A DNA stretch of 64,000 bases from Haliotis cracherodii (Eukaryota), in contig NW_027266270.1 of assembly GCF_022045235.1 (NCBI RefSeq), positions 34,906,001 through 34,970,000 on the forward strand, written 5' to 3'. The position numbers and the translations under genes are program-made. Every line of letters begins with the position of its first letter. Within the stretch, counting starts at the first letter, position 1. The notes below the pieces were generated by a model. That model was not told the origin of the DNA and did no database searches. It was given only the letters and a program-made list of their open reading frames with translations. Below, one piece after another: positions 2,648-64,000 of the stretch.

Positions 2648-3070
2648 CTCTGTCCAGGAGATTTAAGTACCGTAACATGTTTGTTCCCCGTATCAAAATC
2701 GATGTAACTGTCATCAACCAGTGTTTTAAGCCAACTCATTGCTGAGCATTGTTTTAATATTGGCTAGTATTGTGCACAAACCACCACAAGTGATGACGTA
2801 AGTCCTGGTGGGGTATCATGCAGGAAGCTGAGGCACCGTAAGTCCCCATGATCCCCAGCGAGGTAGCCTAGCTTTGGTTATTGGTAGCCCGTGTTTTAAA
2901 CAGTAGTAAATAATATTGTTTTGCCAAAATGTGTTTGCAACTTTGTATTCATGACTCAAATGTATACAAATCATCTAGTTCTCGTGGCTCTATGGCTGAA
3001 ATAATGCCGATGAGACGTTAAAGTTTAACTCACGAATATCCTATATCCACTTTTCCGTTTCATTCATCAG

Positions 3071-21142: not shown

Positions 21143-22205
21143 TACTAGCCACATAAAGAAACTGTGCACGGAGAAAATATATTCTGGATTGAAATACAAC
21201 ACAGCAAGAACAAAATGATGCAGACGCTGTAGCAGCTGAATGATCGGACCATAAGAAAATGTCAACGGGACCTGAACAACATCTGTTACGATGACGTCAG
21301 AAGATCAAAATGGAGTAGGGGGTCAAACGACAAAGTCATAAAGTCAATAACGGGTATGAAACCCCTGTGCGTGAATCATAGCAGTGCATCGGCGACGCAT
21401 GGAGTCCACCAAATGGGCATGGAAGGCCTGGGGAATGGCCTGCCATATCCTCCTCAAATCCTGTGCCAAGTCACGGACGTTATCTGGAGGATGTGGAAGA
21501 CGACGCAGACGGCGCTCCATTTCATCCCACACATGCTCTATTGGGGAGAGATCTGGAGAAATTACATGCCATGGCAGTAACATGACACTGTTATGGTGAA
21601 GGAAATCCATTGCGATCCTAGCCGTGTGAGGACGAGCGTTGTCCTGTTGAAATGTCAATCCCGGGCCATGACGTTGCAGGAAAGGAATGACCACAGGCCT
21701 CAGAATCTGATCTCTGTAGCCAACACCGGTGATATTGCCCTGAACAACCACCAAATGTGTTCGGTGCCGTGCTGTTATCCCACCCCAAATTATCATAGAG
21801 CCACCTCCAAAACAATTCCTCTCCACAATACAGTTGCGTGCATAACGTTCTCTCAAACGCCGGTAGACACGTTGGCGCCCGTCACTGTGGGAAATGTTGA
21901 ACCTAGATTCATCTGTAAAGACAACATTTCTCCACCATATTCGAGGTTGGCGAACATGATTTCGACACCATCTTAGACGGTTGACTCGATGACGGTGTGT
22001 CAGGATGGGACGTATGGCAGGGCGTCGTGGTCGAATCCCGTACTGACGTCCATAGGCCCCCATCAATGACGTCATATCGCATGGCACGTGCATGTGTGTT
22101 TGAATGTCTCCAATAATTGCTGTGTTCAAACCTATCTTTCATATATGGACAGTGTGCCCTTATATCTATATTTTCTCCGTGCACAGTTTTTTTATGTGGC
22201 TAGTA
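21143..22205 (-). mobile_element. Tc1-family DNA transposon, 1,063 bp, internally deleted
   Basis: 39-bp TIRs TACTAGCCACATAAA(G/A)AAACTGTGCACGGAGAAAATATA (21143-21181 and 22167-22205, one mismatch). TA flanks both ends. Confidence 0.9.
21344..22129 (-). CDS. Tc1 transposase, DD34E catalytic domain; N-terminal DNA-binding region largely missing
   Basis: VVFTDESRF, FQQDNARPH and SPDLSPIEHVW are present, with 34 residues between the second D and the E. Confidence 0.85.
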   Translation of the reverse strand: MNTAIIGDIQTHMHVPCDMTSLMGAYGRQYGIRPRRPAIRPILTHRHRVNRLRWCRNHVRQPRIWWRNVVFTDESRFNISHSDGRQRVYRRLRERYARNCIVERNCFGGGSMIIWGGITARHRTHLVVVQGNITGVGYRDQILRPVVIPFLQRHGPGLTFQQDNARPHTARIAMDFLHHNSVMLLPWHVISPDLSPIEHVWDEMERRLRRLPHPPDNVRDLAQDLRRIWQAIPQAFHAHLVDSMRRRCTAMIHAQGFHTRY

Positions 22206-23690: not shown

Positions 23691-23906
23691 TTCCACAATG
23701 AAGACACGCCATGGTTGACGATGCACAGGAGATTGACATGATTGCAGCGATTGGTTGTACTGATTGCAGTGTTAAGTTTACAGTCAGCTGTCGACAATTG
23801 AAACGTTCCCATATTCATGACTTCATGAAGTATGTAATAAAATATAAAACACCACACAAGCACACCACATACGCATACGCACGCATATTCAGATACAAGT
23901 CATATA

Positions 23907-23970
23907 AAAGAAAAAGGTTACTGACAGAATAGATAAAGTGGCGTCAGCTTTAAGGAACAGTGGCGGTGGG
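23907..23970 (+). pseudogene. Short duplicated fragment of the Schlafen ORF1 exon
   Basis: aagaaaaaggttactgacagaatagataaagtggcgtcagctttaaggaacagtggcggtggg aligns to about 24887-24949 (KKKVIDRIGKVVSALRNSGGG). Confidence 0.8.
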
Positions 23971-24074
23971 AAGATCTGTATATGAAAATATGTTTTCCAT
24001 TGCAGATGAAAATACAGAAAATCACATGACGCATGTTCAAGGAATGGACAATTCAGGATGAAAAAAAATCTGGC

Positions 24075-25918
24075 ATGGATGACTCTGGTGTGAATGGGAC
24101 AACATCGGCAAAAGATTTGACAGGTAAACTGCATGTAAAAATTCGTATTGTGTGCAGGAAAGCATACACTTACCACCACATATTAGAATTGCAGATATTC
24201 AAAGGTTACTACGTCACAGAAACTCGTAAATCAGTAAGCTTCAAGATTAAACAGTTTAGTTTAAGAACAAATATGTTCTTGTACGACTAACAAACACCAG
24301 TTACACGTCAGCCAAATTGTGTGAAACCTACTTGAAACTATTGGACCCGTAGAGGTCCGGGGTAGAATAGGTCTTCAGCAATCGATGCTTGCTGTAATAG
24401 GCGACGATGCTTGTCGTAACAGGCGACTAACGGGATCGGGTGGTCAGGCCCGATGACTTGGTTGATGCATATCCTCGTATCCCAATTGCGTGGGTCGATG
24501 TTCATGATGTCAACCATCCAGACTCGATTATTTACAGACCGCCGTCATATAGCTGGATTATTGGTGAGTGTGGCGTTAAACAAACAAACAAACTTGAAAC
24601 TATTGACATATTTTATGGATGCTATTTTCTGTGTCAATAACAAAACTGAGTTCTGTCAATGGATTCATTTGCATATTCATGTATGTTTTTTTATTTTGCG
24701 TAAAGTTAATCGTTTATATCACAAGAACACCTGTAGACACAGTAACATTCCCTTTCAGGTTCATGTGAGAAGTGTCAGAGTGTTGAAAGGAGGTATGAGG
24801 ACATATCCTGTGCTCCAAATTTGTTTGTCATTCACACGGAACGCCCTTATATTTGTGCTGGGAAGAGATCTGGACATTTGAGAGAAAAGAAGAAGGTTAT
24901 TGACAGAATAGGTAAAGTGGTGTCGGCTTTAAGGAACAGTGGAGGTGGGCATCTGTTGGTCCATATTGACGGCCAGGAATCGGAAGATAGGTGTCTTGAA
25001 CAGTTTGATGAGGCAATTACAAAGAGTTTGACGGATCTCATTGAAGATGGACAGTTGTATGTAAACATATATAAGCGACAATGGTTGTCGGAGTTGCCTT
25101 TGTCTGATTTTCAAAATGACACTGAATTTATTTGGCTTAATGTGGAAAGTGCTCATGGTGTAGCGACTGTAGATTTCAATACGAAAATAAGAGACGATAT
25201 TGCCAACGAAAATCCCCCATACGTAACAGTGGCATGTTTACTATCCACAACCAAGGCAAGGAGATCACAAAGTGCAGAAGGCCAGAGTACACAAACTGAT
25301 ACTGTAGGCAGCGGTAGTACTGAACATATCGCAACTTTGTTAGAAAACCCACAGCAATATCACGAAAATAGGAACATAGAATACAAGGCATTAAAATCTC
25401 AGATTTTGAAAAAGATCGGGAAAAGTGACTCTGGTTTCGCAGATTACATCTGGACGGACCTGAAACTAAAGTATAATGTGACATCCATGTCAAAGGTGGA
25501 GAACGGGGGTTCATTTTATGTTGGAATTGCTGAGGTGCAAAAGAAATACACAGCACAGTATGGAACCAAAGTGCCGCACATTGAAGGATTTCAATTGACA
25601 GTTGACCCACAGGTTGTAACTAAACTTCTACTTCAAAAACTCAAAGATACCGTTACTGTCTTAAAAGATGGGACTTTCCATGATGCTCCAGATGACCTTA
25701 TCGAGATAACCTTCCACAAGATACCCAGTGGTTACGTGTTAGAAGTTGCCGTGCGTTATTGTGAAGGACTTGTGTTTTATGACAAAGAGGGACCAAGGGC
25801 ATACGAAGTGAAGGGCAATGAAATTCGTCGAATTGATAAAGAAGTGTGGTTGCGACGATTCAGTTTATCTATGAATAACAAAACACTGTGTTTTAAGTGT
25901 AAGGAAAGAGAGTACTGA
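24075..25918 (+). CDS. Schlafen-like (AlbA_2 core) putative RNase, ORF1 copy 1; exons 24075-24123 + 24759-25918, about 402 aa
   Basis: N-lobe VVSALRNSGGGHLLV. C-lobe HENRNIEYK (ExxxxExK), VTSMSKVENGGSFYVGIAE and VLEVAVRYCEGLVF...PRAYEVKGNEIRRIDKEVW, all matching Schlafen-core motifs. Phase-1 intron ACAG|GTAAAC...ccctttcag|GT. The ATG in GGCATGG is conserved in copy 2; another in-frame ATG exists at 24033. Confidence 0.85.
24344..24591 (+). mobile_element. Family B SINE in the ORF1 intron, with TSD
   Basis: TSD ACTTGAAACTATTG at 24330-24343 and 24592-24605. The paralogous intron has an empty site near 59453-59466. Confidence 0.85.
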
Positions 25919-25929
25919 TTTCTTTCAAA

Positions 25930-27883
25930 ATGTCAGACAGTGACTCCAGTCTGTCCAGCTCGTACAGCTCTGATGGACCGTACCTCATGTCGTATGGGAA
26001 GACATATGACTCTGATGAACCTGACGGGAATGAATTCATTTCAGGTAATAGAAAGCAATAAGCAGCCCAATGGGGATGTGTAGGGTTTGACCGCACTGAC
26101 CACCGCCACACAATGAAAACAGCTTGTACCTCTAAGCTATATAGCAGCAAACATTTCCCTTTCATAGTCCAAAAGATTTTATTCACGACATTGATCAGTC
26201 CTGTCAAAGGTCAAGGCCGTTGGCAAGATTGCTTATTTGTCTTACTGCGCTTGTTTGTGTCTGGAATATGATATGCTTAAGTTATCTGGAAAATGATGTC
26301 CTTTAGTACACATCTTTATAGCCTGGGTAACATGTTTTAGACATGGATCCGTCAATTATATTTCTGAAACGGCCATGGTTGATCGGTCACAGCGAAGATT
26401 GTCAGTAAAGTTTGTTTGGCCTTTTCACAAAAATGGCTTCCTTCATCCATCCTGTACGGGTATATATGACAAGTGACGAAAAACTTATGACCAACTTTCA
26501 ATTTGGAGTATATGCGATATTTCTGTTATATTTAACTTCACCGATGGACTTGCAACCGGAGGTCAAATTCATTCTCAAGGTCACACGTTAAAAGATAATG
26601 ATGTTTATGATAATGCAAGAAGTATTTACTGCAATCAGAGTACCTTGAATACATGTTCTTAGGGTGGGGCCTTCATTGAGGGTCAAGGTCACTGGAATTG
26701 TCATTTGTAAGATAGTTCAGATTATTATTATGTGTATGACTTGAAATGAGGAACAACGTTAATAAACGTTCTTATTAAGGTGGTTGGAGGCACTTTCAGC
26801 TTTAAAGTTGTACCAGAGTTCTTTTCCCTAATAGAAATAGTATTGTTGAAGCGGAAGTAACTGTACAGTCGCCTTGCTTTGGTCAATGGCTGTCATTATA
26901 CCGGTTTGGACGCTGAGGTAGGCTTGTGGTGGAAGCCTTCGCTCAACATGCTGTAAACCCGGGTTCGACTCCCCACATTTCACACCCTATTTTTGGTGTG
27001 ATGCTGCTGGAATGCTACTAAAAGCGATGTAAAACCATACTCACTCTCTCGTGTTAAGATTTTAAGAGGCATGGGGCTTTTTGTTAACTAATAGAGACAA
27101 ACACTTTCTAGGTTCATAAGAGAGCTCTGCCAAAGAACAGATTTGACTGTACGATTCCGACTATATCATGAGCATGCGTTTATGAATCACTAACAAATAG
27201 TGATCATACCAGGTGTTCGCCCTAACGGTGTCACCCGTCACAAACACCTTCAAGGGCAAGACAATTCCTCACCTGAAAAAACAGTCCCGACAATAAATGT
27301 CACAATTTGTCACAGCCGGATGTCTTCAATGAGGGACGTGAATCCAGCAAACGGTGTTGGAAACAACCATACATATCGGCTCTTTCAGATAGGTATCCCG
27401 TTCATGCAGGGCAAGCAAACACGTCGCAAAGCAGATTGTGAAAGGAATCGATTCGCAGTCGTCTTGATCTTTTAGGTATGGCCAGTCTTCAAGAAACTGT
27501 AACCTCGCGACACTTTCGAAATAGTTTGTCTCTCCCGAAATTGAATTATGACTATGAACAGTGGAGCTCGATTCTGTCAAGCACTGGGACGGAGCATGCA
27601 ACCGCACCAAATTAGGGAGGCCACGCAAGACATAAGAGCTGCCGTGGGCCACTTCGTTCTTTTACGAGCGCCTTTTATATGCTGCCACTAACAATCATCA
27701 GAAATAAACTTACAATATATACTGCCAAACACGGTAATCTTAATCCCTGCACATCTTAGTAGAACAAGAAATACAGTGTACATATTGATATCACCTGTTT
27801 CTTTACCTGAATTCGCTGAAGTTTTTCACTGCGCATAATGCTCGAAAATCTCATGCATCTACTCTGGTAGAATTATTTGGGTG

Positions 27884-27947
<64 letters not shown>

Positions 27948-30900
27948 CATGCAGAAACTTCAGGATCTCTCCGAGCAGCATGAATGTGAACATGTCCTAG
28001 TTACTGAGGATTTCTTTATTGTGCAGAAAATGACACAACTCTCCAACTCGTTGTTTACTGATCATGCCAGTGCTGTAGCATTCAGACTCTCAATGATCTC
28101 TAAGTAAAGTAAGAACTCCCTTACTTCTCTGATTATTGTTTAAGTAATAACACAATTCATAACAAATACAGTTTCGTATTCTATCATAAACTGCAGATGA
28201 CAAAACAACACCAGTAATAACGTTTTTAGTGCTTGCAATTAGGCCATTTACAAAAAGGCCCAGTGAGCACAGTTCACATACAGTATGCAGTGCGCCAGCT
28301 GTTTATTCAGCAAGTATATTTCAATATTTTTTCATCTTGTTTGTGTTATAGTATCAGTCTGGTATTGGTACTGCTATCACCTTTCTGCTTACCTCTTGCC
28401 TCCAATCAAATATTTGATTTGATTTATGATTTATTTGATTTTATGTATGATTTATTTGATTTTATGTATGATTTATGTGAATTGATTTAATATGATTTCA
28501 ATTTCCTGTTATATGATAACTATGATATACAGTTACAAATAATCAATTAGTTATTTGTAAAAACAAAGTGACCTAAGATTCTATAGTTATCAGGGAATTA
28601 TATACATATATGTTTTTTCTCATCCTCAATTATAAATAATTCGCAAGCCATGGGTTTTTTGGTTTCCATTTCAGAGCATGCATTCCCATCAAGCGTATTG
28701 TCACTTTCTGAACAACATGATATGCTACGTACATTGCACGAAGAATCAGACAAGCCGTGTGAGTAATTCCTTTACTATTCCACAGCCTTCATATAGATTA
28801 TATCTGATAACAATAATTTTACTTGTCATATTAATAATGAAATTCGCTGCTAATATTTGTGCATCATAACAAAACAAGATTCAAACACACATGGATACTT
28901 GAAGTTATGGGACAACTAAACGGTCCTTGTTTTGCGTGTTTTCAGCCTTTTGGATCTTTCCTCAAAATGTAAGAAAGCACCTGTCAGACAAGTTTCCTCT
29001 GATAAAAAGAAGACTGGAGGAACTGCTTCAACAAGACTGTGCCATCATCATAGCGGGTCATAGTTTACTGAACCTGACAGAAGCATACTGGCAGGGCCGA
29101 GTGCCAATGAGTGTCATTTGTGATGTGTGTGTCTTCTCCCGTGCACACCCTCTCATGATCCTCACCTTTACAACAAACAGACCCGAGACAGCTGTCAGAC
29201 ACAACTCATACTTGGCCAGGTCAATCATAAGAGCTATTAAAGGCGAAACGCAGCTGAATTTAAATGTCTTTCATGGCGTTTTGGATGAGAATGTGTGTCA
29301 GGCACGTGAGACATTCCTTGAAACAATAAACCATTTTGAGAAAATCTCCCACGTTCTGGGCTCTCTGTCTTCTCCAACTCATGACATGTACAGAGTACTG
29401 AAAGCCTTTCTGAAAGTTCTACATGATAACCAGCTACAACGACAAAGTAACAGAGAGGTAACTGCTGTTTGTGTTCAAATGACAAATGTATTTTTCAACA
29501 GGAAACATCAATACCCAATCTCATGGAGCTAAAAGTTTAATAACATTTAAGATGGTCTCAAGTATAGCTTTAACATTTTTTGATGAAAATCTCATAACTA
29601 AGAGTTAAAAAAGCACAGTGGTTAAGACCAGTGGGGAAGGCTATGACTAGAAAAGTGAATAGTTTACCACCCTGAATAGTGAGTTGTGTTAACGTCGCTT
29701 TGAACGGTATTCCAGTAATATCACGTCGTGTCACCTCAGTGTGCAGGTCTCAGGCGTTTTCCACTTTGATGAAACCCATGAGCATGTATAAGGTGCTGAC
29801 AAACTCTGAAATGTAATCGGCGCGAACCTGGAGTAAAACCCACGATCATAGATTTCTGGTGTTCCTAAGGGACGCAGCTCAACTCGGCGAATTGCGACGC
29901 CTAAGGAGACTATGTAACCCACCGCGACTAGCGGGATCGGGTGGTCAGGCTTACTTGGTTTATCCATGTCATCGTATCCCAATTGCGTGGATCGATGCTC
30001 GTGATGTCAATCACTGGATTGTCTGGCCCAGACTCGATTATTTACAGACCGCCGCCATATAGATGGAATATTGCTGAAAGCAGATTTAAACAACAAACAA
30101 AACAAAAAATCTTGCATTTGAACCCATTATCATAGGTTTTTGCCATGCCAAAGGAACGCAATTCTGCAAATCAAATTGAGGTAGTCATGTGAAGCTATGA
30201 ACAATCCTTTCCTTGTGTTATCATCAGTTGCCATTGTAATAATTCTTCAATATCATTGCATACTATATATTAAAACAGTTCTACCATTTCATACAATTGT
30301 AGTCCAATGGCAATTGCATAAAAACAACCCCACTCATAGAAATCGGTAACTTATATTTATGATTTACTTCTAAATCAACTACAGAATAACGTCTTTTAAT
30401 CGAACTCCATTACCTATATATTTTAAGATAGCATGTAGCATGACAGTAGCTTTATTGTTTTGGTACATTGCTGATGAGAACTGTAGTCTAATATTCTCGT
30501 GCAGATAACTTGACGTGTTGTCGATGGTTCGAGGACTTGGATTCTACAAGATTTCACTTAATCTACAGAGCCATCGCCATTTAAGAAATAATCTCAAATT
30601 GTTTTCTTTTTATATCTTCCCAGAACAAAGAACAAGACAAAGAGACAGGTTTGCACACCAATAAGTACCAGCAAGATGCAAAATCGGTCAAACCACTTGT
30701 AATATACATCCACTTAGTACGTTTTGCAAAGTCGTAACACTTGACTAATAAACACTCTGGCAGGAGTAAATATGGGTTATTGAAGTTTAAATATTTACAA
30801 ATATCATTAAAAGCAGCACTTAATAACAGGACGCTTTTTCTTATAACATTTCCATGTTGCAACAGAAAGGACTACAACGCAGGAGGCTTCTTCTCAAATG

Positions 30901-33900
30901 ATGGCTCCTGAAGACCATACGGGAGAAAACAGTCATATATCAGCTCTTCCTAAACGACCAGATGACCAGTCGCCATGTCTAGAGGCATCTGCTACTAGTG
31001 CGAACGACAATGGACATGCACCTATTCAAAGACGAGAGGTATGCATGTATTTGTGTATTGGTTTAAGCCTGCTCACGAAGAGAGTTATGAAGGCCAAATA
31101 CATTGCTTGCTTACTTTCCTGGCAACTGCGTTTTATATTAATATGTATTTAGTATTATATATGTTGGACTTCCATTTTTTTAAACCTTGGTGGCTGAGTG
31201 GGTTAGGTCACTGATTTTGTGTTTGTGATGCCGATTAGGCAAATTGATGTTGAATTCACACAAAAAAAGTTCTAGAATTACTTTACAAAGAAAGTGTTCC
31301 CGGATATAACGTGTGTGAATACTTGTCCTGACTTATTCAACTGAGCAATATGTTTAATGTTACATGGGGCGAATACACTCTGTGTGTTTTTCTAACATGT
31401 CACTCCCTATTTTGTCATTAAAGAGCATTAGTGTACAATCACCGATGGGTCTGTTTGGGTTACATGCAACTAATGCTTCGGTCAATGCTTCGGTGACGAC
31501 AGTCCGTATATCCCTCTGTCGGTAACACTCATATTCAAGATCAAATTCGAGGATCTTTGTATTCTTCAGCTTGCAAAACAGAGATCGTCCTTAATGTTGG
31601 GTTAGGCATGGCTATGTTTCGTTAGTCGCCGCTATTCGCTGTGCAGGGACATGCGTGTAACTTAGCAGGTGGTTCTGATCCCAGATTCACTCTCAGTATG
31701 ATTCTTGGTGTGTCAGCACCGTACCGTTGTTCGTGGGTTTAACTGAAGTGGTAATCGTCTGAGACCTACAACACATCAGGCTTTCATCCCACAACATATT
31801 GACAAGACTGAAAAACAACGTTTAAAATCAAGTCACTCACATTTTATGTGTGTGTTCCAATGTCTCTCTCGGATATACATCTATGTGGGTACATTTAAAT
31901 GTTTTGTGTGGCCAGTGGAATTTCTGCAATCTGGCAGAAATGGTCAATTTTGTGTTCATCCCAGTGAATGTAAAAAATATAAGTCGGGCTACTTTCATCC
32001 CAATATGATGTCAGGGAATCCAGATGCAAGGTGATGGTTACTTTGACACCTTCTTCCTGGGCCAATGTGCACAAAATGATCTTTCCGCTACAATTATTGT
32101 AAATCCATAACTTTGCAAACCACAATCGAAATTTACAATTGGTGTGGTCCAACTTTGAGTAATCCCTTAACATACTTAACAAAATGGCGCGCAATACTGG
32201 GTCTAATTGCAATAAATCCGCTTGTGAGAGTCATATCAATGCTTGGCAAAATATGTAGAACGCATCACAGATATCAGAAAATTGCGATGACAATCCACAT
32301 TAATATCTTGTCGATAATCTAAAATTTCGTGTCCATCCGAGTCTATGCAGACATAATTATAAAAAGAATCTCGCATCTTGCCTTGATCTCTTAACATTTT
32401 TTTAGATGCTACTCTGCGTTCTTTTGCTTCTGACTTTGGATGTGTATTAAAACATTCGTCACCTAATTCATGTCACGCCACAAAATGTATTCCCCTGCAT
32501 GGAATGTTTTTCTCATTTTCTCCTCTATGTATCTGTTTCTAACTAACGGTGAGAAGATATGCTGTTGATTTAACTTCACCTATAAGTATTGCCTGTGTAT
32601 TGTTCAATGAAAAACTACACATTCGATCATTATATGGTCATATTCTGCGTCAATTAACATTCGAGCCATATCGCGATGGGAAATACTCAAATGTAGAGAT
32701 GTAAAATGTTTCTATTGGTATGGCTAATATATGGTGATAACAGATTCTTGTCTCAGTGCCATATATCGGTACACTTTCCACATAGATGTATATAACTTCA
32801 AAACTGTCTACTACTGGGACTTGCTCCGTGTATTGTTACTTACACTTAAACTTAGACTTAGACTTTTGTTGAACCAGTTCCATAAAACCATTACTCACAC
32901 TTCAGTATGACGATCTTCTAAAGAGAATCGAGCAGCTGGAGCAAAGACAAGAAGGTAAGCTTCAGGTTAACCATCATATTTAGGGGCTTTGCTGAAGTAT
33001 AAATCTTTTAGTGAATGAGTATTGTTTTACGCAGCGTTTAGCAATATTCCAGCAATACCACGGCGGGGGACACCAGAAATGGGCTTCACACATGGTACTC
33101 ATGTGGGGAATCGAGCCCGAGCGAACGCTTTAACCACTGGGATACACCGCCCTTATAACTTTTTTTAACAACACATCGTTCATTAACAGTTGATATGTCA
33201 TTCAACATCTGCTTTCTTGAGTTTATATATATATATATATATATTGTTACTGATGTGGTTTCATTTACAGACATCCTGCAAGAAAAGGTAAACAATTCAT
33301 ACATTTCTTTCTTGTCTTTGTTAAAAAAAGTGATTTGTTCTGAAGTAGTAACATCATTTAATGTATACATGTTTGTCTTCTCACACTCATGTCATCCATA
33401 TTACAACTAATATCGAGGAATATTCCCGCAGCTCCAGACCTTGGAGCCTATTTTTCACAACTTTTGAGGCAATCAAGCATGCTCTTTCTACCGAGATTTC
33501 AAAGAGCGTCATACAACTCAGAAGTTGTTTGATCAAGGTTACAGCATTCAAGGCCTCAGTAAAACTTTCAAAATGTTTTATGGAAGACATGTGGAGGAGA
33601 TTTCCAAATTAGACGCATCAGTGACTGAATGATGTCAAATTCAATTCCCTATTTTAACTTGTACCATGTGTTCCCGTGTTTTATTCAGGTGAACAATTGA
33701 ATCTGCCTTTGCATGTGTTTGTGACGGATGCCACCGATGGTGGATGATACACTCACATTTTCCCGAACACATGGTATCATCACTATTTGAAAATGATTAA
33801 GTAACAAATTTTCATGATATAGTTAAAATCGTACAATCGACTCCGTTTTTTGCAGAGATTTATAGTCCGTTGCATTTCTTTATACAGGAAATGCTGCATC

Positions 33901-35655
33901 AAGATTACTTGACGGGTGGGTAGACATACATATTTTTGATTGGTTACATAATACCCCCCCCCCCCAATATGTATGCATGTGTTGTCAGAACACATGTAAA
34001 CAAAAACAGACAAAAAGAATTCAAACAAATAAAGAAGTGACCGTGTCGGAATTGAACCCTTGTAATGAGTGAGCACCTTGACTTCAAAGCTTCCTTTTTG
34101 TTTGTTTACAAGTGCATGTTTGCATTATTATCTCTCCTTTGTGCACAGTGCACTGAATAAAAGTCTTAATAACTCATAATCATAACTCATAACTCATCAC
34201 TGACACGTAATACTTACCTTGACATATTTTGTCTTTCAGATGTACGCCTGTCTCTCTTGATGAGAGTCAGATCCTCCTCATTCTCAAAGTCTGATTCTGG
34301 ATTCTGTAAGTAATCCAAGGGTCCAAACGTTGATAAAGTAGCCGGCCATGTTGAATCTCTCAGCCGAGAAGAAAACACTCACCAATCGGAGGCTCGACTA
34401 ACCTGTCGAACTAAATCTTCCTACAGTAATAACGTTTGCTCTATAAGATTGAAGACAGAAGGTATCAATGGAAACTGTCAATAGAATCAGAACAACATAT
34501 TCACATTTCGATATATTATCGGACAAGAGGATGATAAAGTATTGACTCATAACGGAATTCATGATATATGGGTGTGTTTGCCGGTAAGATAAAGCCAAAG
34601 TCATTTTTTTATTTATTCATAATACAGGATAATTACCGTCCCAATACATACGGATGTTAACCTCGGTACAGGAACAAAGGTTTTATTTCCAGATAACTAT
34701 CAGTTCAACGTACTTTAGAATACAGCAATGGTGTATGGTTGTATAAACTTCTGTGATCACTTGATTGACCAAATAACAGTTGCTGTCGTTTTATATAGCT
34801 GAGACTGGATTGCTATATTTGACCCTCTAACTAATGTTTATGACAGTTTTACATTTTCTTTAAGCAACATCTACTTCAACGAGCGACAAGGGCAGAATAT
34901 CAGATGCCGGAAAAGGGGATAAACGTGAGTTCAGTTCGAGTTTATAAATGAAAACAATCCCTGAAAATACATATCAGCTTTAAGCCTATCTCGAGAGATG
35001 AGGCCTCTTAACGTCCCCTTCACATGTTTTGCATATGTATTGCGAGCATGATGGCATGTTGTGGGTTGTGAACTATTGCTGAAGATCCCTAAACATTTCA
35101 CAAATTAAGGGTAATAGTTGTTGATAGATTTTCGACACAGAATACCCTATCTGTTCACTGCTGTCCCTCAAAGGACCAACAATACTTACATTGTTTAACA
35201 AGTCGAATTTTCCTTAATTAAGATACTACAATTTCACTGTGTACGCATTTGTGAGAAATGCATTTTTTGTTTTACCCAAGGCGACAATGTGACAACGAGA
35301 CATTACATTCAAGGTCAAAATATATCGCATTTTCGCCCCATCGAAAATGACTGAAAGAAGCGTAAATATTGGCGACATTATCGCGTTGTCGTGCATTTTA
35401 ACGCCTTGTTTTACACATTGGGGCGACAATAAAACATATTTTGACCTTGAAAAATGTCGCATTGTCGCATTTTAGCGCTTTGGTTAATTTTGACACTGTT
35501 TTCTTTTTGGAAGGGCGACAACGCGACAACGTGTCAGTGTCCCTTAGTGAACATTTACAGTCATGTCAACGTATTTCTCCACAAGAAGCAATTCTAACAA
35601 CATATATGAGATCTCTATTTTCAGACACACACACACACACACACACACGCACGCA

Positions 35656-35705
<50 letters not shown>

Positions 35706-38189
35706 TAGTAAATATCACCTTTAAACGTTTACAATGACTATGTGTATCTAGACACCACACAACCAAACCATACAGATAGAAATAGAAGGGGTCAACTGTT
35801 TTGCTAAGTTTCACTTAAACGTTTGCGGGGATATTCATGAAAAAGGCGCTGCTGAAGTATTCATCTTTATTGCACAATATTATTGTCAATAATTGTTAAT
35901 ATAGATGATCGTTGTGAAGCTCAAGGTGAACACCTACCTCAGCTGACAAGAAAAGAAATAGATGGAGGCGACCTGGAGTTGGTCAAATTCAACCGAGAGG
36001 CTTCTCTACATGAGGCGTGTCAGGAGGGCAACCTGGATGCCGTGACGCACATCGTGTCCGGGGGACTGGCTGATATCAACTGTAGAGGCAGGCTGGGCAG
36101 AACTCCAGTCATGGTGGCAGCAAAGGCAGGGCACCTGTCAATAGTTAACTTCTTGATCAGGCAAAGCTGTGGTATCTTAGAGGTTGATCACAATAATGAC
36201 ACTGTCCTCCATGTTGCCTGTATGAGTGGAAATGTGGATGTGTTTAAATGTATTCTGTCAAGAAATACTATCAACATGGAGAAGAGAGGGCGATATGGAT
36301 GGACAGCCATAGGCACATCTGCGTTTTATGGCGCGAAAAATGTCTTTGACTTCATTATTAGGAAAGGGTGTGATATGTCAGTGGTCGATGATGATGGTGA
36401 CAACATCCTTCACTTGACATGTCTTGGTGGCAATGTCGAGATCTGCAAGTTCCTCCTCTCAAAAGACATAGTTGGAATAGAGAGTAGAGGAAAATACAAC
36501 AGAACACCCGTGATGAAAGCAGCTAGCAAGGGTCACAGAGAACTGTTTGAGTTCCTTGTGAGTAGAGGGTGTGATCTGTCAGTAGTGGATGGGTATGGAG
36601 AAAACATCCTTCACGTGACGTGTCTTGGTGGCAATGTCGACATCTGCAAGTACCTCCTCTCAAAAGACATAGTTGGAATAGAGAGTAGAGGAAAATACAA
36701 CAGAACACCCGTGATGAAAGCAGCTAGCACTGGTCACAGAGAACTGTTTGAGTTCCTTGTGAGTAAAGGGTGTGATCTGTCAGTAGTGGATGGGAATGGA
36801 GACAACATCCTTCACGTGACATGTCTTGGTGGCAATGTCAACATCTGCAAGTACCTCCTCTCAAAAGACATAGTTGGAATAGAGAGTAGAGGACGATACA
36901 ACAGAACACCCGTGATGACAGCAGCTAGCATGGGTCATAGAGAACTGTTTGAGTTCCTTGTTTGTAAAGGGTGTGATCTGTCAGTACTGGATGGGAAGGG
37001 GAACAACATCCTTCACTTGACATGTATTGGTGGCAATGTCGACATCTGCAAGTACCTCCTCTCAAAAGACATTGTTGGAATAGAGAGTAGAGGACGATAC
37101 AACAGAACACCCGTGATGACAGCAGCTAGCATGGGTCATAGAGAACTGTTTGAGTTCCTTGTTTGTAAAGGGTGTGATCTGTCAGTACTGGATGGGAAGG
37201 GGAACAACATCCTTCACTTGACATGTATTGGTGGCAATGTCGACATCTGCAAGTACCTCATCTCAAAAGACATAGTTGGAATAGAGAGTAGAGGACGATA
37301 CAACAGAACACCCGTGATGAAAGCAGCTAGCATGGGTCATAGAGAACTGTTTGAGTTCCTTGTTTGTAAAGGGTGTGATCTGTCAGTACTGGATGGGAAT
37401 GGAGACAACATCCTTCACTTGACATGTATTGGTGGCAATGTCAACATCTGCAAGTACCTCCTCTCAAAAGACATAGTTGGAATAGAGAGTAGAGGACAAA
37501 ACAACAGAACACCCGTGATGAAAGCAGCAAACCAGGGTCACAGAGAACTGTTTGAGTTCCTTGTGAGTAAAGGGTGTGATCTGTCAGTACTGGATGGCAA
37601 TGGAGACAACATCCTTCACGTGACATGTCTTGGTGGCAATGTCGACAACTGCAAGTACCTCCTCTCAAAAGATGTAGTTGGCTTAGAGAATAGAGGACGA
37701 TACAACAGAACACCCGTGATGACAGCTGCTAGCAAGGGTCACAGAGAACTGTTTGACTTCCTTGTGAGTAAAGGGTGTGATCTGTCAGTAGTGGATGGGA
37801 ATGGAGAAAACATCCTTCACTTGACATGTCTTGGTGGCAATGTCAATATCTGCAAGTACCTCCTCTCAAAAGACATAGTTGGAATAGAGAGTAGAGGACA
37901 ATACAACAGAACACCCGTGATGACAGCAGCGAGCCAGGGTCACAGAGAACTGTTTGACTTCCTTGTGAGTAAAGGGTGTGATTTGTCAGTACTGGATTGG
38001 AATGGGAACAACATCCTTCACTTGACGTGTCTTGGTGGCAATGTCAACATCTGCAAGTACCTCATCTCAAAAGACATAGTTGGAATAGAGAGTAGAGGAC
38101 AATACAACATGACACCCGTGATGATGGCAGTAAACAAGGGTCACAGAGAACTGTTTGAGTTCCTTGTGAGTAAAGGGTGTGATCTGTGA
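25930..38189 (+). CDS. ORF2: Ser/Asp-rich N-terminus + Schlafen SWADL-like linker domain + short-exon linker + about 22 ankyrin repeats (about 1,100 aa)
   Basis: Phase-consistent GT-AG model: 25930-26044, 28946-29457, 30624-30648, 30866-31038, 32906-32954, 33271-33287, 33888-33915, 34240-34305, 34865-34924, 35905-38189 (3,330 nt, no internal stop). Start context is TTCAAAATG. The small exons are the least certain part. Confidence 0.65.
27887..27945. repeat. (GT)n microsatellite
   Basis: Seen directly. An interrupted version is at about 62057-62098 in the paralogous block. Confidence 0.95.
28946..29457 (+). CDS. ORF2 exon 2: Schlafen middle (SWADL-type linker) domain
   Basis: Acceptor ttttgcgtgttttcag|CC (phase 1) and donor GAG|GTAACT. 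AIIIAGHSLLNL...VICDVCVFSRAHPLMILTF...YLARSIIRAI resembles the vertebrate SLFN linker as I recall it (ILIFSRSWAVDL...VICDALLIAQNSTPILYTI...TAFTLKQKL). Confidence 0.7.
29680..29910 (-). mobile_element. tRNA-derived SINE (family C)
   Basis: Reverse complement resembles 39115-39380 and 49850-50090 (CATGCTCATGGGTTTC...GAGACCTGCA). Confidence 0.6.
33010..33150 (-). mobile_element. tRNA-derived SINE (family A)
   Basis: GGGGACACCAGAAATGGGCTTCACACAT...GGGAATCGAGCCC is the reverse complement of family A. Confidence 0.8.
33400..33830 (+). mobile_element. Penelope-like element 3' fragment
   Basis: KLFDQGYSIQGLSKTFKMFYGRH. The nucleotide sequence is similar to 11880-12090. Confidence 0.6.
35626..35702. 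repeat. (CA)n/(CACG)n compound microsatellite
   Basis: Seen directly. Confidence 0.95.
35905..38189 (+). CDS. ORF2 terminal exon: ankyrin-repeat array
   Basis: Acceptor aatatag|AT (phase 1). Four diverged ANK repeats, then nine near-identical 67-aa double-ANK units (NILHxTCLGGNV / RTPVMxAASxGH), ending at TGA 38187-38189. Confidence 0.9.
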
Positions 38190-38660
38190 GTAGTGGATGA
38201 GAATGGTGACAAAATCCTTCACGTGACGTGTATTGGTGTCAATGTCGACAACTGCAAGTACCTCCTCTCAAAAGACATAGTTGGCATAGAAAGTAGATAA
38301 AAATACAACAGAACACCCGTGATGAAAGCAGCTAGCAATGGTCACAGAGAACTGTTTGAGTTCCTTGTTTGTAAAGGGTGTGATCTGTCAGTAGTGGATG
38401 GGAATGGAGACAACATCCTTCACGTGACATGTCTTGGTGGCAATGTCGACATCTGCAAGTACCTCCTCTCAAAAGACATAGTTGGAATAGAGAGTAGAGG
38501 ACAATACAACATGACACCCGTGATGACAGCAGCTAGTAATGGTCACAGAGAACTGTTTGAGTTCCTTGTGAGTAAAGGATGTGATGTGTCAGTACTGGAT
38601 TGGAATGGGAACAACATCCTTTACGTGACATGTCTTGGTGCCAATGTCGACATCTGCAAT
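36366..38660 (+). repeat. 201-bp coding tandem repeat, about 11.5 units
   Basis: The G-C-D codon block recurs every 201 bp from 36366 to 38577. Confidence 0.95.
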
Positions 38661-38831
38661 TACCTCTTCACGAGAGGGATAACTGATAAGATGTGTAAAA
38701 AGAATAAACGTGGTGAAAAACCACTGCAAGTTGCAGAATCACGTGGCCACAAAGTTGTTGTTGGCATTCTGAAATCCGTTCCGAAACGAGGGTTGAGGCG
38801 TAGCTTTTTCAGCAGAAAGAAGACGCAGTAG
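38190..38831 (+). pseudogene. In-frame continuation of the ankyrin array and original C-terminus beyond two stops
   Basis: Same frame as 35905-38189. A second stop (TAA) is at 38298-38300, followed by intact units, a capping repeat (KPLQVAESRGH) and a basic tail ending at TAG 38831. Confidence 0.75.
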
Positions 38832-50181: not shown

Positions 50182-51823
50182 CACCATGTCCGCATGGATG
50201 ATTATTTGAGTTGTCCCTTTCACCATGTCCGAATGGATGGTTATTTGAGTTGTCCCTTTCACCATGTCCGCATGGATGGTTATTTGAGTTGTCCATTTCA
50301 CCATGTTCGCATGGATGGTTATTTGAGTTGTCCCTTTCACCATGTCCGCATGGATGATTATTTGAGTTGTCCCTTTCACCATGTCCACATGGATGGTTAT
50401 TTGAGTTGTCCATTTCACCATGTCCGCATGGATGACTATTTGAGTTGTCCCTTTCACCATGTCCGCATGGATGGTTATTTAAGTTGTCCCTTTCACCATG
50501 TCCGCATGGATGGTTATTTGAGTTGTCCCTTTCACCATGTCCGCATGGATGGTTATTTGAGTTGTCCCTTTCACCATGTCCGCATGGATGGTTATTTATG
50601 TTGTCTCTTTCACCATGTCCGAATGAATGACTATTTGAGTTGTCCTTTTCACCATGTCCGCATGGATGGTTATTTGAGTTGTCCCTTTCACCATGTCCGC
50701 ATGGATGGTTATTTGAGTTGTCCCTTTCACCATGTCCGCATGGATGGTTATTTGAGTTGTCCCTTTCACCATGTCCGCATGGATGGTTATTTGAGTTGTC
50801 ACTTTCACCATTTCCGCATGGATGGTTATTTAAGTTGTCCCTTTCACCATGTCCGCATGGATGGTTATTTGAGTTGTCCCTTTCACCATGTCCGCATGGA
50901 TGGCTAGTTGAGTTGTCCCTTTCACCATGTCCGCATTGATGGTTATTTGAGTTGTCCCTTTCACCATGTCCGCATGGATGGCTAGTTGAGTTGTCCCTTT
51001 CACCATTTCCGCATGGATGGTTATTTGAGTTGTCCCTTTCACTATGTCCGCATGGATGGTTATTTGAGTTGTCCATTTCACCATGTCCGCATGGATGGCT
51101 AGTTGAGTTGTCCCTTTCACCATGTCCGCATGGATGGTTATTTGAGTTGTCCCTTTCACCATGTCCGCATGGATGGTTATTTGAGTTGTCCCTTTCACCA
51201 TGTCCGCATGGATGGTTATTTGAGTTGTCCCTTTCACCATTTCCGCATGGATGGTTATTTGAGTTGTCCCTTTCACCATGTCCGCATGGATGGTTATTTG
51301 AGTTGTCCCTTTCACCATGTCCGCATGGATGGTTATTTGAGTTGTCCCTTTCACCATGTCCGCATGGATGGTTATTTGAGTTGTCACTTTCACCATTTCC
51401 GCATGGATGGTTATTTAAGTTGTCCCTTTCACCATGTCCGCATGGATGGTTATTTGAGTTGTCCCTTTCACCATGTCCGCATGGATGGCTAGTTGAGTTG
51501 TCCCTTTCACCATGTCCGCATTGATGGTTATTTGAGTTGTCCCTTTCACCATGTCCGCATGGATGGCTAGTTGAGTTGTCCCTTTCACCATTTCCGCATG
51601 GATGGTTATTTGAGTTGTCCCTTTCACTATGTCCGCATGGATGGTTATTTGAGTTGTCCATTTCACCATGTCCGCATGGATGGCTAGTTGAGTTGTCCCT
51701 TTCACCATGTCCGAATGAATAACTATTTGAGTTTTCCTTTTCACCATGTCCGCATGGATGGTTATTTATGTTGTCCCTTTCACCATGTCCGAATGGATGG
51801 TTATTTGAGTTGTCCCTTTCACC
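50182..51823. repeat. 39-bp tandem array, 42 units, with a 585-bp higher-order duplication
   Basis: Consensus CACCATGTCCGCATGGATGGTTATTTGAGTTGTCCCTTT. 1,638 bp / 39 = 42 units with no net indels. The pattern of variant units recurs at +585 bp. Confidence 0.95.
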
Positions 51824-59198: not shown

Positions 59199-60767
59199 AT
59201 GGTTGACTCTGGTGTGAATGGGACAACATCGGCCAAAGATTTGACCGGTAAACTGCATGTAAAAATGTATTGTTTACAGAAATGTACACACTAAGCACTA
59301 CATATTAGAACTGCAGATATTCAAAGGTTACCACATAAAAGAAACTGTGACTCGTAAGTCAGTAATCTTCAAATGTAAATAGTTCATTTAAAGTTATTTT
59401 CTGGTACTGTTAACAAACATTAGGTACATGTAAGCTAAATTGTGTGAAACTTACTTGAAACTTTTGACGTATTTTATGGATGCTCTTTTCTGTGTCAATA
59501 ACAAAACTGAGTTCTATCAATGGATTCATTAACATCTTCATGTATTTACTTAGAATAAAATGAATCCCCTATATCACAAGAACACCTGTAAGCACATTAA
59601 CATTCCCTTTCAGGTTCATGTGAGAAGTGTCAGAGTGTTGAACGGAGGTATGGGGACATATCCTGTGCTCTGAATTTGTTTGTCATTCACACGGAACGAC
59701 CTCATATTTGTGCTGGGAAGAGATCTGGACATTTGAGAGAAAAGAAGAAGGTTATTGACAGAATTGGTAAAGTGGTGTCGGCTTTAAGGAACAGTGGAGG
59801 TGGGCATCTGTTGGTCCATATTAACGGCCAGGAATCGGAAGATAGGTGCCTTGAACAGTTTGATGAGGCAATTACAAGGAGTTTGTCGGATCTAATTGAA
59901 GATGGACAGTTGTATGTAAACATATACAGGCGACAATGGTTGTCGGAGTTGCCTTTGTCTGATTTTCAAAATGACACTGACTTTATTTGGCTTAATGTGG
60001 AAAGTGCTCATGGTGTAGCGACTGTAGATTTCAATACGAAAATAAGAGACGATATTGCCAATGAAAATCCCTCATACGTCACAGTGGCATGTTTACTATC
60101 CACAACCAAGGCAAGGAGATCACAAAGTGCAAAATGTCGAGAAACTGATACTGTAGGCAGCAGTACAACTGAACATTTCGCATCTTTGTTCAATAACCCA
60201 CAGCAATATCACGAAAATAGGAACATAGAATACAAGGCGTTAAAATCTCAGATTTTGAAAAAGATCGGGAAAAGTGACTCTAGTTTCGCAGATTACATCT
60301 GGACGGACCTGAAACTAAAGTATAATGTGACATCCATGTCAAAGGTGGATAACGGGGGTTCATTTTATGTTGGAATTGCCGAGGAGCAAAAGAAATACAT
60401 AGCAGAGTATGGAACCAAAGTGCCGATCATTGAAGGATTTCAACTGACAGTTGACCCGCAAGCCGTAACTAAACTTATACTTCAAAAACTCAAAGATACC
60501 GTTACTGTCTTAAAAGATGAGACTTTCCATGATGCTCCAGATGGCCTTATCGAGATAATCTTCCACAAGATACCCAGTGGTTACGTGTTAGAAGTTGCTG
60601 TGCGTTATTGTGAAGGAATTGTTTTTAATGACAAAGAAGGACCGAGGGCATACGAAGTGAAAGGCAATGAAATTCGTCGTATTGATAAAGAAGAGTGGTT
60701 GCGACGTTTCAGTTTATCTATGAATAACAAAACACTGTGTTTTAAGTGTAAGCAAAGAGAGTACTGA
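59199..60767 (+). CDS. Schlafen-like (AlbA_2 core) putative RNase, ORF1 copy 2; exons 59199-59247 + 59614-60767, about 400 aa
   Basis: GCCATGG start and a phase-1 intron ACCG|GTAAAC...ccctttcag|GT. Same motifs as copy 1, including HENRNIEYK. The frame is intact. Confidence 0.85.
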
Positions 60768-60778
60768 TTTCTTTCAAA

Positions 60779-60893
60779 ATGGCAGACAGTGACTCCAGTG
60801 TGTCCAGCTCGTACAGCTCTGATGGGCCGTACCTCATGTCGTATGGGAAGACATATGACTCTGATGAACCTGACGGGAATGCAGTCATTTCAG
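60779..60893 (+). CDS. ORF2 copy 2, first coding segment (the rest lies beyond the window)
   Basis: TTCAAAATGG start 11 nt after the ORF1 stop; MADSDSSVSSSYSSDGPYLMSYGKTYDSDEPDGNAVIS, then G|GTAAAA. It is 115 nt long, the same as copy 1. Confidence 0.7.
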
Positions 60894-62859
60894 GTAAAAG
60901 AAAGCAATAAGCAGCCCAATGAGCAATTGGGATGTGTAGGGTTTGACCGCACTGACCACCGCCACACAATGAAAACAGCTTGTACCTCTAAGATATATAG
61001 CAGCAAACATTTCCCTTTCATAGTCCAAAAGATTTTATTCGCGACATTGATCAGTCCTGTCAAAGTCAAGGCCGTTGGCAAGATTGCTTATTTGTCTTAC
61101 TGCGCTTGTTTGTGTCTGGAATATGATGTCCTTTAGTACAGATCCTTTATAGCCTGGATAACATGTTTTAGACATGGATCCGTGAATTCAATTTCTGAAA
61201 CGGCCATGATTGCTCTACGTATAAAGCGAAGGTTGTCAGTAAAGTTTGTTTGGCCTTTTCACAAAGATGGCTTCCTTCATCTTTTCTGTACGGTATGTAT
61301 GTTAAGTGACTAAAAACTTATGACCAACTTTCAGTGTGGAGTATATGCGATATTTCTGTTATATTTAACTTCACCGATGGACATGCAACTGGAGGTCAAA
61401 TTCATTCTCAAGGTCACACATTAAAAGATTATTATGTTTATGATAATGCAAGAAGTATTTACTGCAGTCATATTACTTAGTAGGTATCCCGTTCATGCAG
61501 GGCAGATTGTAAAAGGAATCAATTCGCAGTAGTCTTGATTTTTTAGGTATGGCCAGTCTTCAAGAAACTGTAACCTCTCGACACTTTCGAAATAGTTTTG
61601 TCTCTCCCGAAATTGAATTATGACTATAAACAAGGACCTCACAGGGGAGCTCTCTGTCAAGCGCTTGGACGGAGCATGCAACCGCACCAAATTAGGGAGG
61701 CCACGCAAGACATACGAACTGCCGTGGGCCACTTCTAAAGTTCTATCTTACGAGCGCCTTTTATTTGCTGCCACTAACAATCATCAGAAATAAACTTTGC
61801 CAAACAACACTGTATTAAGCGAAACACCGGCAATGTGTGTACAGATGACTGCCATTTCCGGATTACTTTACCAGAAAATAAACTCGGCAATCGTAATCCC
61901 TGCATATAAAGCAATTCCTAGCAGAACAAGAAATACAGTGTATATATTTGCTACCACCTGTTTGTTTACCTGAATTCGCTGAAGTTTTTCACTGCGCAGA
62001 GTGCTCGAAAATCTAATGCATCTACTCTGGTAGAATTATTTGGGTAAGGTGGGGAGGTGTGCGTGTGTGTGAGCTTGTGTGTGTGTGTGCGTGTGTGTTT
62101 GTTAACTCTGGTCATATGACAAGGGATTTATATACCCGGAAATTCCATTATATCGACAATATTTGAGAAATTGCACATGTCCGGATGAGCGAGGTTCGAC
62201 TGTACTAAATTGCTATTTAAAGAACGCCTCTTCTTCCATGCTGGAAGCCTTTATTATGTTGAGGATGAAGTGCCTGTATTGTTGATATGTGGTAGTTATT
62301 CCCAACCGAGAAGCGAAATACTTTGCCAATTATTTCATAAATACACCAAGAACTGAAACCTTTGTAAGACCGACAATATCCATGTTTTTATTCCCAAAAG
62401 TTTGGGATTTTTGAAAAAAAAACATTTTCGAATTTCGCTTTCAATGGCTTTGACTTAGACTGAAAATCGCGGTAGTCTTCGTTTCCGGTCAGATCTTGAA
62501 AACCATGTAATATTTCTTCAAACGTGGCATATAAATAGGTCTAGGGGTAAACTGGTGCCTTTTGAAAGTTTGGGAGTTTTTGCGAATGTTTCCTTAGCAA
62601 GAGCATAACTCGGAAACCATTTACACATTCTACAAAAAAACCATCTGAGAACCGTTATCATAGTTATCAATTGAGATGTATACCACTTGACAAAGGATAT
62701 TGGACAACGTACATGGTAAATAATTGTGAAAACACAATTTAAAGGGGTCACCTCAACAAGCCTACTTCATCGCAGTGCCTGTCGGTAACATGAACTGGGG
62801 CACCCGAACCAACCTACTTCCTCGCAATGCATGATGGTAACATGAACAGTGGCAACCGA

Positions 62860-63250
62860 ACCAAGTTCTGCATTGCTTGTGTGTATGTTCCTCCAAAAGT
62901 GTCATGGACACGGTTGTCGCATTCACTTACTGATTTCATGCAGAAACTTCATGATCTCTCCGAGCAGCATGAATGTGAACATGTCCTAGTTACTGGGAAT
63001 TTAAACTGTGATCTGAGTGAAAAAAAAGGAAACTTGAAGATTTCTTAGATGTGCAGAATATGACACAACTCATTCACTCTCCAACTCACTGTCTTGGACT
63101 TGTTGTTTACTGATCATGCCAGTGCTGTAGCATTCCAGACTCTCAATGTTCTCTCAGTAAAGTAAAAACTCCCATACATCTCTGATTATTGTTTAAGTAA
63201 TAACAAATACAGTTTCGTATTCTATCATAAACTGCAGATGACAAAACAAC
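62860..63250 (+). mobile_element. LINE AP-endonuclease fragment in intron (deleted version at about 27946-28260)
   Basis: IACVYVPPK...VLVTGNLNCDL...LDLLFTD resembles the EEP motifs YRPP, GDFN and LDL. Confidence 0.6.
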
Positions 63251-64000
63251 ACCAGTAATAACGTTTTTAGCGCTTGCAATTAGGCCATTTACAAAAAGAT
63301 CCAGTGAGCACAGTTCACAGGAGCTAATCCATTGCACACAACAGGACATGTCATATTGGCGGGGGATCTGAGTATTTCATGCTTATCAAATATTTGATGA
63401 AATTTCTTTGTCAAGTACTAGAAATTTCAAACAAAACATCTACCCGTGTAACATACAGGATGCAGTGCTCCAGCTGTTTATTCAGCATGTACATTTCAAT
63501 ATTTATTTCATCTTGTTTGTGTTATAGTATCAGTCTGGTATTGCCACTGCTATCACCTTTCTGCTTACCTCTTGCCTCCAATCAAATATTTGATTTGATT
63601 TATGATTTATTTGATTTATTAGTTGCAGTAAAATACATAATTAATTTATTTGTAAAAAAATGTGACCTAAGAATCTATAGTTATCAGGTAATTATATACA
63701 TATATGTTTCTCTCATCCTCAATTATAAATAACTCGTAAGCCATAGGTTTTTTGGTTTTCATTTTAGTGCATGCATTCCCATCAAGCGTATTATCACAGT
63801 CTGAACAACATGATATGCTACGTACATTGCACGAAGAATCAGACAAGCCGTGTGAGTAATTCCTTTACTATTCAACAGCCTTCATATAGATTAAATCTGA
63901 TAACAATAATTTTACTAGTCATATTTATAATGAAATTCGCTTGTAATATTTGGGCATCATCACAAAAACAAGATTCAAACACACGTGAATATTTAAAGTT

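Follow-up and report, generated by a model that had tools for sequence, protein, structure and literature searches.

A Schlafen gene apparently split at the core/linker boundary in the abalone Haliotis cracherodii, with a free RNase core and a linker–ankyrin protein likely encoded on one spliced transcript

Vertebrate long Schlafens, among them SLFN11, SLFN5 and SLFN14, have a tripartite layout of RNase core, linker and helicase (SLFN12 is without the helicase) and an ExxxxExK motif in the core, as described in sections of PMC11615386 and PMC13056530. According to those same sections, tRNA cleavage depends on the motif, and Schlafen nucleases have recurrently been coupled to sensors that can be exchanged (PMC13056530); in SLFN11 the linker connects the nuclease to the helicase and keeps the latter in its two orientations (PMC11615386). 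Here we describe a Schlafen gene from the abalone Haliotis cracherodii (RefSeq assembly GCF_022045235.1, contig NW_027266270.1), located in a stretch of 64,000 nucleotides (nt) analysed as a whole (positions 34,906,001 to 34,970,000, forward strand; hereafter the window, whose own numbering is used throughout). With a probability of roughly 0.6, we read this gene as a long Schlafen split at the core/linker boundary, with spliced contigs joining two open reading frames (ORFs) that likely give a free RNase core (ORF1) and a linker–ankyrin protein (ORF2) predicted to bind and gate the core as an innate-immune sensor.

The abalone gene shares with the vertebrate long Schlafens the order of core and linker, the ExxxxExK motif in the window copy and, in other abalone paralogs, the start of the helicase; it differs in that core and linker are separate ORFs, the helicase is gone with ankyrins in its place, and the core carries an additional CxxC and two His. 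Fused mollusc Schlafens (P0142, P0150 and P0030) likewise have a core followed by the same linker, but as one chain, in gene models outside the split clade described below. SAMD9 reportedly carries an AlbA domain and a predicted STAND-like NTPase. Prokaryotic Schlafen defence proteins such as RorSlfn5 also combine a Schlafen nuclease with exchangeable sensor domains (sections of PMC13056530). Unlike RorSlfn5 and SAMD9/9L, which are single chains, the abalone nuclease and sensor are predicted to be two proteins, the sensor has an N-terminal Schlafen linker, and the core is two-lobed. Fungal NLR–executioner pairs and plant paired NLRs place a STAND receptor beside a separate effector gene, and sister abalone ORF2s similarly have an N-terminal domain, nSTAND3 and ankyrins beside an effector ORF, although here the effector is a putative Schlafen RNase on the same transcript and the ORF2 of the window has no STAND domain. 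A long first ORF, a stop near an out-of-frame AUG and a second functional protein are reportedly features of polycistronic mRNAs in green algae. The same layout is found in the termination–reinitiation mRNAs of calicivirus and influenza B, with their TURBS (a ribosome-binding site upstream of termination), and of SART1 (excerpts of PMC10275272). Compared with TURBS-type, SART1 and algal mRNAs, the abalone case is a spliced animal immune gene family with spacers of 10–286 nt and no TURBS-like motif found.

At the junction, ORF1 (402 amino acids) ends in a TGA that is followed by the 11-nt spacer TTTCTTTCAAA and by an ATG opening ORF2 in a different frame (Table 1). Stop, spacer, ATG and the 115 nt up to a phase-1 donor had all been listed in a first-pass annotation made from the letters alone, and were read directly from the window sequence exactly as claimed; no poly(A) hexamer occurs within 25860-26300. 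ORF2 forms a chain of 11 exons and 1351 codons in which every intron is GT-AG and all phases match, two of the small exons (33271-33287 and 33888-33915) having been adopted from RefSeq models of the tandem copies. The annotation had led this donor straight to the exon at 28946 and from there to the ankyrin exon: the phase-matched chain to the ankyrin exon holds, whereas the direct join does not, since the 84-nt exon intervenes. Over its first 400 amino acids the chain is 94% identical to RefSeq model P0157, and models P0157-P0159 begin at the ORF2 ATG, 11 nt behind the core stop.

Transcript evidence came from contigs of sequencing runs aligned to the window copy (X1, X2, X5, X12) and to a second tandem copy (X1, X2, X4, X5). 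No run listed by the run search is recorded as RNA, and none contains half of the words; those used are presumed to be RNA, and the splice joints in their contigs argue for RNA and for processed transcripts. In 5 of 5 runs, drawn from 4 studies and 5 organism codes, contigs span stop, spacer and ATG with 0 gaps, and then splice into the linker exon or into the exon before it. At the window copy, none of the four runs shows a change at 25914-25946, so that stop and ATG are both kept, and each of the four joins 26044 to the 28675 exon; joints and loose ends are absent from 25860 to 26044, and the intron behind the donor is not covered. One X2 contig, 1288 nt long, begins about 450 nt into ORF1 and continues across the spacer to the end of the linker exon, an X5 contig splices the linker exon onto a 30866-type exon, and the 366-nt ORF1 intron of copy 2 is spliced out in contigs of 3 of the 4 runs. 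By these contigs of relatives, both ORFs are likely joined in one spliced transcript. The outcome singled out beforehand as fatal to the split-gene reading, ORF1 and ORF2 never occurring together, is contradicted as far as contigs can show, which leaves room for a separate start site of ORF2.

The assignment of ORF1 to the Schlafen cores, proposed at first pass, was borne out by a profile of 27 paralogs, which matches the N-terminal domain of SLFN11 (E 3e-7), SLFN14 (2e-5) and SLFN8 (3.5e-4), as well as SLFN12 and SLFN5, and finishes at the last Trp of the core. PF04326 was detected in 24 of the 27 members, the window copy scoring under the curated cut-off, and an Atlas search placed ORF1 at 0.93 to SLFN12-like and Schlafen 1 clusters; a single-sequence PDB search with ORF1 gave nothing useful. 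The ExxxxExK motif reads ENRNIEYK in the window copy, and among 82 paralogs 24 have E-E-K and 54 E-Q-K. Judged from these comparisons, ORF1 is a complete two-lobed Schlafen RNase core with a predicted catalytic motif. In its N-terminal part, a CxxC and two His (C3, C6, H26, H69) are invariant across the 27 aligned paralogs, which suggests another metal site.

For ORF2, a Pfam scan of the single linker exon gave no match, and all matches of an Atlas search with residues 1-235 stayed below 0.9. The exon at 28946-29457, flagged at first pass as a Schlafen linker, was modelled with a predicted local distance difference test score (pLDDT) of 85.8; Foldseek returned 13 matches with E up to 0.001, the top 13 being all human Schlafens, and a second structural aligner gave Z 12.8-16.1 to human SLFN5, SLFN11, SLFN12 and SLFN14, the next unrelated fold reaching Z 5.5. 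The alignment to SLFN12 388-545 has Z 15.7 and a root-mean-square deviation of 3.1 Å over 155 residues. A 28946 exon devoid of the Schlafen-linker fold, another outcome named at first pass as refuting, was not observed. When 22 paralogous linker exons were combined into a profile, it aligned without a break to SLFN5 423-619 (E 1e-4) and SLFN11 463-639, spanning the SWAVDL motif, which is degenerate in the window copy, through to the helicase Walker A; other paralogs thus retain the linker and a helicase stub reaching as far as Walker A (matching by regular expression gave 15 of 58, an undercount, and a profile search was used instead). Since the core profile stops at the last Trp, the linker fold lies in ORF2 and the linker-to-Walker-A match to SLFN5 and SLFN11 is collinear, the family is, on present sequence evidence, derived from a long Schlafen, with the cut between core and linker, as the first-pass annotation had placed it. 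A scan of the terminal exon found ankyrin families only and no C-terminal helicase, and the paralog stub and the ankyrin-only exon together support the predicted replacement of the helicase by ankyrins in the window copy.

The ORF1 search gave at least 120 genome matches, of which 80 loci were examined together with two tandem copies (82 paralogs). The frame stops 3-39 amino acids past the conserved Trp in 78 of the 82 (the stop was not located in 4), a linker exon lies 0.75-6.5 kb downstream in 58, and core and linker share one genomic frame in none, contrary to the scenario, allowed for at first pass, of orthologues that are all single fused ORFs and a stop that is a recent lesion. The window gene falls in a clade of 44 of the 82 (FastTree support 0.995; tree rooted on a bacterial homolog, and its paralogs not independent), in which the stop is common. 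A Ser/Asp/Glu-rich, acidic ORF starts at most 300 nt after the stop at 32 of 44 clade loci, compared with 2 of the 38 loci outside it and with 174 (10.6%) of 1640 random positions, an excess beyond chance, and the ORF2 frames of the clade are split 12/11/9. The ratio of non-synonymous to synonymous substitution rates (dN/dS) is 0.33-0.40 for the core among the three tandem copies and, in six close pairs, 0.23-0.67 for the linker exon (the mis-framed pair L049/L058 being left out), which points to constraint on both ORFs. In protein databases, 120 of 135 homologs reaching the core end stop within 50 amino acids, including Littorina and Batillaria proteins, and 3 of 150 continue from the core into a linker, namely P0142 (Tegillarca granosa), P0150 (Pecten maximus) and P0030 (Haliotis rufescens, with an ApoL tail). 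The closest named proteins are from Haliotis. No ORF1 homolog of 684-2000 amino acids was returned by a dedicated search, a weak one since the longer form P0030 exists, and no fused P0030 orthologue was found in genome G000 (best match 38%). These comparisons support a stop at the core/linker boundary that is old and clade-wide.

Some members have layouts of their own. At L067 (the same locus as L004), compared with its sister L068, the core frame overruns the former ORF2 ATG, and the damage resembles a recent lesion. Among loci outside the clade, L126, L129, L143, L135 and L138 have a strong phase-2 donor overlapping the apparent core stop, and may be splice-fused, ancestral-type members. Among database proteins, P0104 and P0128 have Ig or fn3 domains before the core, the Batillaria model P0091 has the linker before the core, and P0141 is a 1040-amino-acid Endozoicomonas protein with a two-lobed core.

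The unit in the window is one of three tandem copies, all with the same stop and spacer, the third lying about 70 kb beyond copy 2. The ankyrin exons of the other two copies are intact, with 57 (copy 2) and 17 repeats. For the window copy, where at least 22 repeats had been claimed, the motif count is 27, of which 22 precede the first in-frame TGA; the two stops are codons 1138 and 1175 of ORF2. Both lie in one 201-nt ankyrin unit, the most divergent from its neighbours (17 differences versus 6-15), and they may represent a truncating allele or an assembly error.

What stands behind the linker varies across the family, as judged from a scan of 53 downstream ORFs, for most of which the link to the linker is one of position only. 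An nSTAND3 NTPase (PF20720) with ankyrins was found at L069, L070, L081 and L084 within the clade and at L100, L119 and L125, a B-box at L083, ankyrins alone at L076 and an AIG1 GTPase at L126, L130 and L097. RefSeq models P0167, P0170 and P0171 consist of acidic leader, linker and nSTAND3 with no core, and P0160 of leader, linker, RING and B-box. Cargo types therefore include ankyrin, nSTAND3 with ankyrin, RING–B-box and the helicase stub, with a STAND NTPase absent from the ORF2 of the window. The NLR-like cargo of sister ORF2s points more to a sensor–effector pair than to the toxin–antitoxin label suggested at first pass, which has no direct support.

Table 1. Features of the split Schlafen gene and its second tandem copy, in window coordinates
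Feature	Position	Strand	Basis and remarks
ORF1 exon 1 (coding)	24075..24123	+	phase-1 donor; in-frame ATG at 24033, possibly 14 further amino acids
ORF1 exon 2	24759..25918	+	predicted Schlafen RNase core, both lobes; ends in TGA 25916-25918; structure model pLDDT 79.5
Predicted ExxxxExK catalytic motif, ENRNIEYK	25364..25387	+	motif as defined in PMC13056530
Intercistronic spacer, 11 nt	25919..25929	+	no AG, no poly(A) hexamer; unchanged and gap-free in contigs of 4/4 runs
ORF2 exon 1 part	25930..26044	+	115 nt; ATG at 25930 with A at -3, Ser/Asp-rich leader; phase-1 GT donor at 26045; splice at 26044 in 4/4 runs
ORF2 84-nt exon	28675..28758	+	phase 1-1; splice support in contigs
ORF2 predicted Schlafen linker (SWAVDL-type) exon	28946..29457	+	Foldseek, second structural aligner; PF21026 in 9/29 paralogs
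ORF2 seven small exons, low-complexity spacer	30624-30648, 30866-31038, 32906-32954, 33271-33287, 33888-33915, 34240-34305, 34865-34924	+	phase-matched GT-AG chain
ORF2 terminal exon	35905..38831	+	27 ankyrin repeats, 201-nt units; stops TGA 38187-38189 and TAA 38298-38300 leave 22
Tandem copy 2	59199..63851	+	ORF1 59199-59247 + 59614-60767, same 11-nt spacer, ORF2 ATG 60779, next exon from 63768; continues past the window

In the proposed expression mode, ORF1 would be translated first, from the 5′ end, and ORF2 from the same mRNA, most likely through reinitiation by the ribosomes stopping 11 nt upstream, a step to which we give about even odds; reinitiation after a stop is known for viral RNAs and SART1 (excerpts of PMC10275272). 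Readthrough or a common frameshift was rejected as the family mechanism because ORF2 lies in three different frames among paralogs, and leaky scanning because ORF1 contains 21 out-of-frame ATGs (19.5 ± 2.6 when shuffled). A conserved alternative acceptor before the ORF2 ATG was looked for and not found, acceptor-like sites occurring at 9 of 31 loci versus 20-33% in controls. With these candidates set aside, reinitiation or a second start site is left, and we favour reinitiation for the short-spacer loci, while some paralogs, with long spacers that hold extra ATGs or poly(A) hexamers, may differ.

Several observations weigh against this account. The signal looked for in TURBS-type reinitiation, an 18S-complementary motif with structure upstream of the stop, did not appear: TGGGA occurs in 5 of 53 cases versus a 12.5% background, there is no synonymous-site peak, and the junction fold has a z of -0.05. 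In long-spacer paralogs the spacer holds as many as 6 ATGs, and 4 of 31 spacers contain a poly(A) hexamer. Among the three copies, ORF2 exon 1 gives no sign of dN<dS (1 synonymous and 4-5 non-synonymous changes versus copy 1), 12 of the 44 clade loci are without an acidic ORF start and 20 without a linker within the DNA fetched, and the ankyrin array of the window copy is interrupted by its two premature stops. Gln replaces the second Glu in 22 of 44 clade cores, so that many may be poor nucleases, although the window copy keeps Glu. As for the contigs, none of them represents a molecule: an internal start could have given rise to overlapping transcripts that were then merged, rare forms are dropped, and being 90-99% alike to the window copy, they come from relatives or sister copies and are not expression evidence for the window copy itself.

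Part of this evidence would suit two overlapping transcription units, in which the long mRNA makes ORF1 only, with the ORF2 exons as 3′ untranslated region, and ORF2 comes from a shorter capped mRNA starting inside the ORF1 exon or the spacer, the two proteins still being able to pair. The A at -3 in 27 of 31 hand-curated ORF2 starts, versus 27% of intronic ATGs, suits scanning from a cap, and this strong start context fits a separate mRNA equally well; the lack of a detected reinitiation element, the spacers of up to 286 nt with extra ATGs, the poly(A) hexamers and the presence of the two halves as separate RefSeq proteins point the same way. We nonetheless consider this arrangement unlikely, if worth serious attention: in 4 of 4 runs the surroundings of the junction are free of contig ends and branches, although starts are beyond what contigs can reveal, and a stop codon upstream of many introns makes an mRNA a likely decay target, the ORF1-only mRNA having its stop upstream of ten.

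It is also conceivable, with low probability, that the split is real and the halves no longer cooperate, ORF1 being a stand-alone short Schlafen and the ORF2 linker a mere scaffold for cargo. Core-only Schlafens exist in vertebrates (clusters of about 335 amino acids), and C20 loci have no linker within the DNA fetched; all but a small number of the linker exons found, however, directly follow a core in the same orientation, and the two have remained neighbours across about 60% amino-acid divergence as the cargo changed. Still less probable is alternative splicing, either from ORF1 exon 1 (phase 1) to an acceptor at 25937 in the ORF2 frame or from a donor at 25899 so that the stop is removed and the halves are fused. 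A phase-1 GT at 25899 and the CAG at 25934-36 would permit an in-frame 38-nt intron, and the five loci outside the clade with a donor over the stop may be spliced in this way. Against this, at a 3% threshold none of the 4 runs has a joint, gap or loose end there (although rare forms are lost from contigs), the acceptor-like sites near the ORF2 ATG stay at the control level given above, matching named database proteins end at the genomic stop, and most homologs reaching the core end terminate shortly after it. A once-fused gene broken by an assembly error or by a recent lesion of the nonsense or frameshift kind, which the premature ankyrin stops and the damaged junction at L067 might recall, is refuted as the cause of the core/linker stop by the clade-wide layout and by a stop that is identical across the three copies and the contigs of four organisms, and has a chance close to nil except for the two ankyrin stops alone.

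Under the split-gene reading, the linker would probably dock on the free core, as it is the neighbour of the core in SLFN11, and would relay the cargo signal to it, with restraint or activation by ORF2 both possible. Ligand binding by the cargo may then switch on tRNA/rRNA cleavage and shut down translation, a step we judge evenly balanced. With one mRNA for both, nuclease and regulator would remain co-expressed, and the sensor half would be free to evolve. In mussels, Schlafen transcripts rise on Vibrio exposure (excerpts of PMC7772429). More broadly, and with greater reserve, abalone may possess a family of dozens of two-cistron immune mRNAs, each coding for a Schlafen RNase and a matched, reinitiated NLR-like or repeat sensor docking via the Schlafen linker, an operon-like sensor–effector defence in an animal whose cellular mode of reinitiation would need no known viral-type signal; we regard this wider picture as plausible but somewhat short of likely.

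Other features were recorded in the window. The leader of ORF1 (24006-24074, and 59150-59198 in copy 2) contains several upstream ATGs with short ORFs, which may damp nuclease output, and just 5′ of exon 1 a 65-nt piece (23906-23970) is 91% identical to ORF1 24885-24949 and absent from copy 2. A Tc1/mariner transposase remnant (DDE_3, E 1e-9) lies at 21344-22138 on the minus strand, a probable gene of two exons, which weakly matches a methyltransferase (E 0.025), at 93-518 + 3029-3667 on the plus strand, and a 39-nt minisatellite of 42 copies at 50182-51823, with a 611-amino-acid open frame on the minus strand.

Each element of this gene has a precedent, in Schlafen sensor fusions, in two-cistron mRNAs and in NLR–effector pairs. 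No description of a split or bicistronic mollusc Schlafen was found in a literature search that left subscription journals and supplements outside its scope, and databases label the halves as unrelated “uncharacterized” and “ankyrin repeat” proteins. Few animal mRNAs carry two long conserved ORFs, and in this case an entire clade of immune genes appears to rely on such an mRNA; with natural spacers that vary in length and fall in all frames, it offers a direct test, in a cellular gene, of reinitiation behind a long ORF. That the cut occurs in nature suggests a Schlafen linker able to act as a docking module of its own, a point of relevance to how SLFN11-type nucleases switch on, and the family would add a candidate effector for the NLR-like receptors of molluscs.

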